NCBI GenBank assembly: GCA_048538235.1
Contig: JBLYPX010000001.1
Span: 521,015 to 585,014 of the forward strand
Source of the DNA: Candidatus Komeilibacteria bacterium
GTDB lineage: Bacteria; Patescibacteriota; Patescibacteriia; UBA1558
DNA: 64,000 bases
Direction: 5' to 3'
Both the position numbers and the translations under genes were made by a program. Below, in pieces: positions 51,319 through 54,289 of this stretch; positions within the stretch are counted from its first letter, which is position 1; the number at the start of each line of letters is the position of its first letter. Below the pieces are notes generated by a model. The model saw nothing but the letters and a program-made list of their open reading frames with translations, had not been told where the DNA came from and made no database searches.

Positions 51319-53928
51319 CTATATTCTACTTGCCTTATCTACCCGTATTTTATCTGCTGTTTCTAAAACAACCTTATCTCTTCTGTCTATTTTGCCTGTA
51401 AGTAAGAAATTAGCGAGTGCATTTTCAACCTTTTCTTGTATTACTCTTCTTAAAGGTCTGGCACCAAATTTAGGATCATAGCCAAGTGCTGCTAATTCTT
51501 TTACAGCTATATCTGTTGCTTCTAAAAATATTCCTTTAGCTTCCAATCTCTTAGTTTCTTTCTTTAATAGCAATAACGCTATCTGCTCAATATGTTCCTG
51601 GGTTAATGGTTTGAATATTATTATATTGTCAAATCTATTTAAAAACTCTGGTCTAAATGAAGTTCTTAGCTCTGTTTCAAGTAGTGCTTCTTTAATTGCT
51701 TCTGCTGTTGCTCCTGCTTTAGTCTGATCCTGAATATAGTTTGTGCCAGCATTAGATGTCATTATTAAAATAAGGTTTGTAAAATCTACAGTTCTGCCAG
51801 TAACATCTGTCATACGACCATCTTCCATTACTTGTAAAAATACATTCAAAATATCTGGGTGAGCTTTTTCAATTTCATCAAGAAGTAATATTGAGTGCGG
51901 ATCTTGTCTAACTGCATTGGTTAAAACACCACCAGTATCTCCACCAGGTGTACCTAATAGTCTTTGTAGGCTATTCTTCTCTTGGTATTCAGACATATCC
52001 AGTCTAATCATCTTCTTCTCATCACCAAAGTAAACTTCAGCTACAGTTTTAGCAAGTTCTGTTTTACCAACCCCAGTTGGTCCCATAAATAGTAAATTAA
52101 CAATAGGCCTCTTTAAATCTCTTAAATCTGCCCTAGCTCTTCTTAAAGCACCAGCTACAGCTGAAACAGCCTCTACTTGATTAATAATTCTCTGATGAAT
52201 TAATTCTTCAATATTTATTAACTTATCTGATTCATCACGAGTTACTTGTGTAATTGGTACTTCTGCTTTTTCTGCAATCAATGCTGCCACATCTTCTTTA
52301 TTAACCATCTGATTCTTACCACGCTTATTTTTAACTCTCACACCAACCTCTTCAACAATATCTATTGCTTTAGAAGGAAGATATCTGTCGTGCATATATC
52401 TTTCAGATAATTCAACTGCAGCTGCTAATGCATCATATGTAAAAAATACTTGGTTTTTACTTTCTACCCTACCAATATTTGCAGCTAGTATTTGAATAGC
52501 CTGGTTTGTTTCTGGCTCATTAATTTCAATCTTTGTTAAATTGTTAGCAAATGAACTATTCTCAATATATTTTACATAATCATGGGGTGTTGTAGAGGTA
52601 ACAACATATACTCCTTGTTTAATTAAACTTTCAGTTAATATATCTGCCAAATCTACATTAGAGCGTCCAACTGAAGATACGCCTACTAAATTATGTATAT
52701 TGTTAATGTATAGAACAATATTACCAGCACGAGACACCTCATTAATAATATGCATCACTCTACCCTCTAGTTCACCTTCATGAGTTGTATCTGCTACTAA
52801 TCTAGATAATTGTAAAGATACCATTCTTTTATCCTGTAAAAACTCTGGTACTTCTTCTGCCACCATTCTATTTGCAAGCCCTTCAATAATGGTATCTACG
52901 CCCACACCCGGATTACCAACTAGAACAGGAGTGCCTCCACCCTCTAAAACACTGTACAGATCTGTAAACTCTTTATCTCTAGCTACACACAAACCAAAGT
53001 ATCCAGCTTTTGCTAGCATTGTAAAATCTTCAGAAAAACTATCTAGTACTGGCGTAGCAATAGCTGTCATTGCTTTATCCATTGAACCTTTTGGTTTAAA
53101 TCCAGCCTTGTATCTAAATCTGTCATATCTTTCTTGCAAGGTTTGTTGAATTCTAATCCAAGCAACAGCGTTTAAAATTTTATCTTCTGTGATTGCAAAG
53201 TCAAAAAGCAATTCCTTTACCTTTTCATCTACATTAACAATAGCTTCTAAAAGTTCTGCTACTTCCACCTGCTGCCTTTGTTTTTCATATGCTAAAGCAT
53301 AACTCTTCATAACCACTTCCATGGCATTAGCATCCAAATTTAATTTACCAGCCTTTGTAACAATACCATCGTCTTTAATAATACTAGCAACAGTTTCAGA
53401 TAATCTTTTTACGGAAACGCCTAATCTACCCATGATTGTAATAACGCTATCGTTTTGTAATAGAGATAAAAATATGTGAATTGGTTGAATAGCACTATCG
53501 CCATCTCCGGCAGCAATAAAGTATGACTTCTCAATTACCTTTAAAGCATCTTTAGAAAATGCATTATTAATGTATGTATATTTCTGTTTTTTAATTCTAT
53601 TAATATCTCCTTTACGCAAAACTGAATACTTACCAACTTTTTTACTCTTTTGCCAATAACTTAAAAACATAGCAGCTAATACTGCCCACCACAAAACATG
53701 AGTCCATTCACCTTGCCAAGAAGCAGCTGTGAACATATCTGTATTAGATTCGTAAATAGAATAAACATTATAACCAAAGAAAGTAGCGCCTGCTAAAATT
53801 GCTAAAATTAAAGCAGCAATAATAATCACATTTACTACTCTTCTAAATCTATCTACCAAAACAGATGCGTGGGAAAAACTTTTACCCCAAACAAGTTTCT
53901 GTCCTTCAATTAATAATTCTTTATCCAT
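51319..53928 (-). CDS. membrane-anchored two-ring Clp/Hsp100 AAA+ ATPase (ClpC/ClpB-like) with a degenerate first nucleotide-binding domain
   Basis: Two N-terminal TM helices, Clp-N repeats, D1 with Walker A GNPGVGVDT (Lys lost) and Walker B YINNIH (DE to NN), then an intact D2 (GPTGVGKT, LLLDEIEKAH, GARPLRR). Confidence 0.85.
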   Translation of the reverse strand: MDKELLIEGQKLVWGKSFSHASVLVDRFRRVVNVIIIAALILAILAGATFFGYNVYSIYESNTDMFTAASWQGEWTHVLWWAVLAAMFLSYWQKSKKVGKYSVLRKGDINRIKKQKYTYINNAFSKDALKVIEKSYFIAAGDGDSAIQPIHIFLSLLQNDSVITIMGRLGVSVKRLSETVASIIKDDGIVTKAGKLNLDANAMEVVMKSYALAYEKQRQQVEVAELLEAIVNVDEKVKELLFDFAITEDKILNAVAWIRIQQTLQERYDRFRYKAGFKPKGSMDKAMTAIATPVLDSFSEDFTMLAKAGYFGLCVARDKEFTDLYSVLEGGGTPVLVGNPGVGVDTIIEGLANRMVAEEVPEFLQDKRMVSLQLSRLVADTTHEGELEGRVMHIINEVSRAGNIVLYINNIHNLVGVSSVGRSNVDLADILTESLIKQGVYVVTSTTPHDYVKYIENSSFANNLTKIEINEPETNQAIQILAANIGRVESKNQVFFTYDALAAAVELSERYMHDRYLPSKAIDIVEEVGVRVKNKRGKNQMVNKEDVAALIAEKAEVPITQVTRDESDKLINIEELIHQRIINQVEAVSAVAGALRRARADLRDLKRPIVNLLFMGPTGVGKTELAKTVAEVYFGDEKKMIRLDMSEYQEKNSLQRLLGTPGGDTGGVLTNAVRQDPHSILLLDEIEKAHPDILNVFLQVMEDGRMTDVTGRTVDFTNLILIMTSNAGTNYIQDQTKAGATAEAIKEALLETELRTSFRPEFLNRFDNIIIFKPLTQEHIEQIALLLLKKETKRLEAKGIFLEATDIAVKELAALGYDPKFGARPLRRVIQEKVENALANFLLTGKIDRRDKVVLETADKIRVDKASRI

Positions 53929-54289
53929 TGATAATAAATAATTGGTAAACTACCAATACTGGTAAGATTATATATACAAACAAAACTGCAGTCATAACAA
54001 TAAGCCACACGAGCATTAAAAATATATTCCAGATCAACTGAGCTGTTCTCATTATGAAACTAATTATTTTACCCTGCCAATCTCTTTGACCGTACATTGG
54101 CTTAAACCAATACTTGAATAATATTTTTAAAGCCAATCTTTGAGCACCAGCCCGTAAAGATTTAAAGTAAAATTTCAAAGCTAAAACAAGACCAGCTGAA
54201 TACCACCAAATAGGAAAATATATAATATCTCTTAATAAATCTATTAAGATTATCTTCGCTGTATAATATATGTCTTGTTTGCTAATCAT
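53921..54289 (-). CDS. hypothetical small membrane protein
   Basis: 122 aa with three TM helices. Confidence 0.4.
   Translation of the reverse strand: MISKQDIYYTAKIILIDLLRDIIYFPIWWYSAGLVLALKFYFKSLRAGAQRLALKILFKYWFKPMYGQRDWQGKIISFIMRTAQLIWNIFLMLVWLIVMTAVLFVYIILPVLVVYQLFIING

Follow-up and report, generated by a model that had tools for sequence, protein, structure and literature searches.

We found that the 869-aa reading frame at positions 51319-53928 of the window (the whole stretch of DNA that was analysed, 64,000 nucleotides) codes for a protein of a large, Patescibacteria-restricted Hsp100/Clp subfamily. A predicted membrane hairpin and a Clp_N-type domain precede a first AAA+ ring (D1) that has lost every catalytic element and a second ring (D2) whose catalytic motifs are intact. 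The ATPase gene is translationally coupled to the gene of a helical-hairpin membrane protein of about 122 aa, and the two are nearly always adjacent. On balance, we favour a reading in which the ATPase would remodel or extract proteins at the membrane together with this small partner, powered by D2 and without ClpP. The features are as follows.

51319-53928, minus strand: Hsp100/Clp-like ATPase gene, product predicted to be membrane-anchored (869 aa plus stop codon)
53921-54289, minus strand: small membrane partner gene (122 aa), directly upstream; 8-nt overlap of its stop with the ATPase start
53881-53916, minus strand: pre-TM beta-hairpin with conserved L-x-W-G-K, aa 5-16; strands 5-7 and 10-13 (AF2)
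53761-53838, minus strand: predicted TM helix 1, aa 31-56 (Wimley-White, AF2)
53707-53760, minus strand: inter-TM loop, aa 57-74, acidic, no Lys or Arg, predicted outside the cell
53650-53706, minus strand: predicted TM helix 2, aa 75-93, Trp-rich (Wimley-White, AF2)
53563-53649, minus strand: basic linker, aa 94-122, predicted cytoplasmic
53098-53562, minus strand: divergent Clp_N-type N-domain, aa 123-277, eight helices by AF2 (Pfam, ClpA model, family profile)
52249-53043, minus strand: D1, predicted pseudo-ATPase module, aa 296-560; AAA+ fold kept, all catalytic motifs lost
52891-52917, minus strand: degenerate D1 Walker A GNPGVGVDT, aa 338-346; Lys to Val and Thr to Asp (ClpC, GEPGVGKTA)
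52771-52791, minus strand: D1 pore-loop site DTTHEGE, Tyr lost (canonical KYRGE; TKYRGE opposite in ClpC)
52693-52713, minus strand: degenerate D1 Walker B LYINNIH, aa 406-412; Asp-Glu to Asn-Asn (canonical FIDELH/FIDALH)
52537-52551, minus strand: D1 Arg-finger site FANNL, both Arg lost (canonical LERRF)
51322-52248, minus strand: D2, predicted active AAA+ module plus D2-small, aa 561-869 (AAA_2, ClpB_D2-small, intact motifs)
52060-52083, minus strand: D2 Walker A GPTGVGKT, intact (74/74 homologues)
51919-51954, minus strand: D2 pore-loop-1 site GTPGGDTGGVLT, 4 residues shorter than canonical GAPPGYVGYEEGGQLT; gap opposite ClpC PGYVGY
51862-51888, minus strand: D2 Walker B LLLDEIEKA, intact (74/74 homologues)
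51655-51750, minus strand: segment at the site of the ClpP-docking IGF/L loop of ClpA/C/E/X; 32 residues, largely helical, no such tripeptide
51628-51651, minus strand: D2 Arg finger PEFLNRFD, intact; R765 invariant
51445-51465, minus strand: D2 sensor-2 GARPLRR, intact (motif alignment)

Reality and class of the ATPase gene

The sequence-only reading had placed an 869-aa two-ring Clp frame at these positions, which our analysis confirmed on the minus strand. It had also named two ways in which it could mislead: orthologues with intact D1 motifs, which would indicate sequencing errors here, or a better start codon past the TM region. Neither turned up. The orthologues carry the same D1 substitutions, the degenerate motifs being identical across 12 clade members from independent assemblies, and past the TM region a TTG at codon 104 is the sole in-frame candidate for a start. 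This start is contradicted by the pre-TM LxWGK motif and both helices, which are conserved in 184 of the 188 full-length homologues; the dN/dS of 0.19-0.29 over codons 1-122 and the overlap of the ATPase ATG with the upstream stop codon also speak against it. D1 is held under strong purifying selection, with a dN/dS of about 0.05 that is as low as that of D2 (0.050 for D1, with values spanning 0.03-0.06, versus 0.061 for D2), and within-clade identity is 0.73 in D1 and 0.81 in D2. The odd motifs are the sole point in favour of an artefact, be it an error in sequencing or assembly, a pseudogene in decay or a miscalled start that adds the TM region. Against it stand the shared motifs in independently assembled clade members, the D1 dN/dS, the N-terminal conservation and the overlapping start, and we consider it next to impossible; pseudogene, sequencing error and wrong start codon were thus ruled out.

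The tandem D1 and D2 modules place the protein in class I of the Hsp100/Clp ATPases. This assignment rests on the Pfam scan (AAA_lid_9, 9e-15; AAA_2, 1e-55; ClpB_D2-small, 9e-23), on the alignment of a family profile with ClpC D1 and D2, and on the predicted structure, which gave TM-scores of 0.84-0.87 to ClpC and ClpB hexamer protomers (0.87 to ClpB 6qs6). The best-scoring NCBIfam model was a ClpB model at 589 bits, and the ClpB models (TIGR03346, 588.9 versus a cut-off of 1232.1 bits; NF008118, 477.4 versus 1417 bits) and ClpA models (TIGR02639, 527.3 versus 993.15 bits; NF008263, 403.7 versus 1350 bits) all stayed under their cut-offs. ClpC residues ~404-460, in the M-domain, have no counterpart in the query; ClpB and ClpC align with it in two stretches and ClpA in one uninterrupted stretch, which bears out the suggestion that a long M-domain is lacking.

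A search for the IGF/L loop, which had been proposed as a check, revealed no ClpP-docking tripeptide in the query. At the docking-loop site KAGATAE lies opposite ClpC YVGFNVQ, AF2 predicts helices 729-737 and 742-751, and the segment is 32 residues long in all 186 sequences compared, versus 38 in ClpC; an IGF/L-type tripeptide occurs in this segment in 12 of the 186, the query not among them. The Pfam scan detected no ClpP among the 26 larger ORFs of the window and neither Peptidase_M41 nor any other protease domain in the ATPase, which is not of the FtsH type. Source annotations label the homologues 'ATP-dependent Clp protease ATP-binding subunit ClpC', and the top PDB matches are ClpC, both of which favour an ordinary ClpC that unfolds substrates for the ClpP peptidase. 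This explanation is nevertheless very improbable, because the protein has no IGF/L-type docking loop but an invariantly shorter and largely helical segment, lacks the M-domain for MecA-type control, scores far under all curated cut-offs and has an apparently dead D1. According to a preprint, the Saccharibacterium TM7x carries annotated clpB and clpP genes.

We also considered an anti-phage defence ATPase and rejected it: the PADLOC matches (PDC-M37B, 114 bits; DolB, 105 bits) represent partial similarity at the level of D2 and not membership in these systems.

The membrane hairpin and the two rings

Wimley-White octanol sums of -8.5 kcal/mol for TM1 (about aa 31-56) and -10.8 kcal/mol for TM2 (aa 75-93), together with AF2 helices at 20-60 and 74-99 (pLDDT 84-92), support the two in-frame hydrophobic TM helices of the sequence-only reading. 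The loop between them is acidic and free of Lys and Arg and is therefore predicted to be extracellular, whilst the 31 residues past TM2 contain 10 Lys/Arg, so that the linker is predicted to be cytoplasmic; the protein would thus cross the membrane twice, as a hairpin of two helices whose ends both face the cytoplasm. At least two hydrophobic N-terminal segments were found in 184 of 188 homologues with the Wimley-White scan, which we used instead of a Kyte-Doolittle scan that detected the second helix in just 58 of 120 homologues, an undercount due to the richness of TM2 in Trp. The pre-TM beta-hairpin (aa 5-16) is a remnant of a zinc-ribbon module of the relatives, most of which carry an N-terminal DnaJ-type ribbon with two CxxCxGxG copies upstream of LxWGK that the query lacks; the best match of their Cys-rich segment is DnaJ_CXXCXGXG, below threshold.

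The Clp-N repeats had been called canonical. The double-repeat N-domain is present, as indicated by the profile alignment and eight AF2 helices, but it is divergent, with a Pfam Clp_N score of 20.2 bits that falls just under the cut-off of 20.7. The NCBIfam ClpA model begins to align with the query at aa 130, and the family profile aligns without interruption with ClpC residues 6-403 (i-E 1e-79), a span that includes the ClpC N-domain (6-145).

Alignment with ClpC and among the 12 clade members upheld the reported loss of the D1 Walker A lysine and of both Walker B acidic residues. With GVGVDT at Walker A, NN at Walker B and NN in place of the Arg fingers, D1 is, as far as its motifs tell, a pseudo-ATPase ring that keeps the AAA+ fold with every catalytic element gone. 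Across 74 species-level Patescibacterial homologues, the Walker B DE, the Arg-finger pair RR and the pore-loop aromatic residue are each found in none (0/74), and the Walker A GK[ST] in 18; only in the Komeilibacteria clade has the Walker A lysine been lost in addition. The earlier suggestion of a lineage-specific adaptation hence applies to this lysine, but not to the catalytic loss in D1 as such, which is universal in the Patescibacteria-wide family.

D2 is predicted to be catalytically competent. Its Walker A and B motifs, sensor-1 (TSN), Arg finger and sensor-2 are intact, and the catalytic motifs are intact in all 74 species-level homologues. The earlier description of a preserved P-loop, DE, sensor and Arg finger is therefore correct, but D2 is not fully canonical: GTPGGDTGGV, which contains no aromatic residue, replaces the GYVG pore loop and places Val668 where the canonical Gln precedes 'LT'. 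A canonical PGY-like loop is present in 8 of the 74 homologues, and the residue before 'LT', Gln in ClpC, is Y, F, I, L, V or M in 70 of them. The query thus has neither the KYR loop in D1 (TTHEGE) nor the GYVG loop in D2, and because its clade has no aromatic pore-loop residue in either ring, processive threading by these proteins is uncertain. Of the membrane unfoldase powered only by its second ring, as first proposed, the tether, the dead D1 and the intact D2 agree with our predictions, but the unfoldase role is less secure on account of the pore loops.

The small membrane partner gene

AF2 predicts that the partner forms a long alpha-helical hairpin (helices 4-51 and 71-121, pLDDT 93). 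It carries the invariant motifs YFPxWWY and PM(F/Y)GQxD...R(I/L)(I/V)S(F/L)xMR and shares 30-37% identity with the upstream ORFs of four other loci (L001-L004). Its homologues fall into 2105 clusters, every one 'hypothetical' and without a Pfam assignment, and the partner itself had no match in Pfam, PADLOC or NCBIfam. It occurs in at least 566 species-level Patescibacteria genomes, and a Clp-like ATPase gene lies directly downstream of it in 81 of the 83 assessable loci, the exceptions being L049 and L059. This linkage suggests that the two proteins make contact.

Other neighbours are not conserved. A functional link to the M16 peptidase, GlyRS or Tgt was rejected because their genes are present in only 5 (M16), 7 (glyS) and 20 (tgt) of 86 loci. 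The locus sits among core housekeeping genes. The small partner, the change in the D2 pore loop and the zinc ribbon of the relatives had not been mentioned in the sequence-only reading, and our literature search returned nothing on the module of ATPase and partner or on the ATPase family.

Mechanism, rival explanations and known systems

In the reading that we favour on balance, a hexamer (assumed here; D1 would offer neither nucleotide binding nor Arg fingers) would be tethered to the inner surface of the membrane; since the anchor lies at the N-terminus, the N-domain/D1 face would be the one turned to it. D1 would serve as a structural and assembly ring and, in the Komeilibacteria clade, would probably not even bind nucleotide, so that ATP hydrolysis in D2 alone would power the work. 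This work would consist of remodelling membrane-associated proteins or extracting them, independently of both ClpP and DnaK; substrates would be drawn away from the membrane, in the direction of the cytoplasm, and contacted by the shortened D2 pore loop through its hydrophobic end (Val668 in the query, Tyr in most relatives). The partner may act as an adaptor, co-anchor or substrate receptor via its conserved, basic cytoplasmic loop. We infer that a role in membrane extraction or quality control, as suggested in the sequence-only reading, is reasonable. A more specific version is possible but tentative: partner and ATPase could form a dedicated, Patescibacteria-only membrane machine, a bacterial Hsp100 counterpart of the eukaryotic Pex1/Pex6-Pex15 or Msp1, in which a hexameric ring of at least 12 TM helices and the partner would pass membrane or envelope proteins to a D2-only motor with a re-invented, non-aromatic pore loop. 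Should such a machine prove essential, it would serve proteostasis or envelope maintenance as a system that defines this lineage of ultra-small bacteria.

The D2 cycle could instead work as a non-threading ATP switch that flips the partner or the TM bundle between conformations or states of assembly, for example in gating or assembling a membrane complex, comparable to Torsin with LAP1/LULL1 and other AAA+ proteins without aromatic pore loops. The query clade lacks an aromatic residue in both pore loops, its D2 loop is 4 residues shorter and Gly-rich, and the ATPase has an obligate link to one small membrane protein, as such a switch would lead one to expect. However, the hydrophobic residues at position 668 in 70 of 74 homologues and the PGY-type loop still found in 8 suggest a conserved hydrophobic pore contact, in other words a pore that has not been abandoned. 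The body of D1 and D2 is also modelled like substrate-bound ClpB and ClpC protomers, the query has kept the Clp_N substrate- or adaptor-binding domain and most relatives carry the DnaJ-type zinc ribbon, so that we regard the switch as rather unlikely.

An export motor is more improbable still. Here the hexamer would push unfolded polypeptides outward via a channel of 12 TM helices and the partner, like Plasmodium HSP101 feeding EXP2 in PTEX. A ClpB-like, ClpP-independent Hsp100 that sits at the membrane and has a further small subunit there would suit this role, and Patescibacteria are regarded as episymbionts, which need to deliver proteins to their hosts. However, Hsp100 motors such as ClpB, ClpA and Hsp104 translocate from D1 toward D2, and with an N-terminal anchor that turns the N-domain/D1 entry face toward the membrane, translocation would run away from it; HSP101 in PTEX docks on the pore with its D2 face. 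The predicted extracellular loop, moreover, spans just ~18 residues.

Textbook Hsp100/Clp motors are soluble, hydrolyse ATP in both rings and grip their substrates with tyrosine pore loops. The present family would depart from all three rules, being by prediction membrane-integral, with a first ring that appears dead yet is strongly conserved and a remodelled pore loop in the second, and it is tied to an uncharacterised small membrane protein. Judged by the spread of the partner gene it is not rare, and Patescibacteria are a very large, mostly uncultured group with minimal genomes, in which retained genes tend to matter. The family offers a natural experiment on the contribution of a pseudo-ATPase ring to a double-ring AAA+ motor and may represent a bacterial case of AAA+-driven membrane extraction without an attached protease. 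The database labels 'ClpC' and 'Clp protease ATP-binding subunit' need correcting, as they imply a partnership with ClpP that the sequence does not support.

Like ClpB and Hsp104, the query is a two-ring Hsp100 with a Clp_N domain; its D2 and D2-small are ClpB-like, and its segment from sensor-1 to RPEF lacks the ClpP loop. Unlike them, it has no coiled-coil M-domain and hence no predicted coupling to DnaK, its D1 lacks Arg fingers and is apparently dead, neither pore loop has kept its tyrosine, it is predicted to be membrane-anchored with an obligate small membrane partner, and it scores less than half of the ClpB cut-off. Among PDB sequences the most similar is ClpC, whose N-domain aligns with that of the query, and ClpA shares the absence of an M-domain. 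ClpE carries an N-terminal zinc-binding segment, as do the relatives of the query, but theirs is of the DnaJ CxxCxGxG type and is missing in the query itself, which further differs from ClpC, ClpE and ClpA in lacking the IGF/L docking loop, in its dead D1 and in its predicted TM hairpin.

FtsH and Msp1/ATAD1 resemble the query in that an N-terminal TM anchor keeps a hexameric AAA+ ring on the cytoplasmic side of a membrane (the hexamer being assumed for the query), and FtsH also in having two TM helices per subunit. Both have a single ring of the classic AAA clade and aromatic pore loops, and an M41 protease domain is present in FtsH, whereas the query is a two-ring Hsp100 without a protease domain. 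Human CLPB/Skd3 is a disaggregase-type Hsp100 relative with a single ClpB-D2-like ATPase module, and its similarity to the query in alignments lies in D2; unlike the query, it has ankyrin repeats, a canonical pore loop, no D1 module and no stable TM anchor. A functional analogy is found in the eukaryotic peroxisomal type-II AAA+ proteins Pex1/Pex6 with Pex15/Pex26, a precedent in which an inactive D1 ring is paired with a working D2 ring that threads substrate, at a membrane and with a small membrane-anchored partner (PMC5762779). Pex1/Pex6 belongs to another AAA+ clade and not to the Clp proteins, forms a heterohexamer with aromatic D2 pore loops, and is soluble and recruited to the membrane by its partner, whereas the ATPase described here is predicted to bear a TM hairpin of its own.

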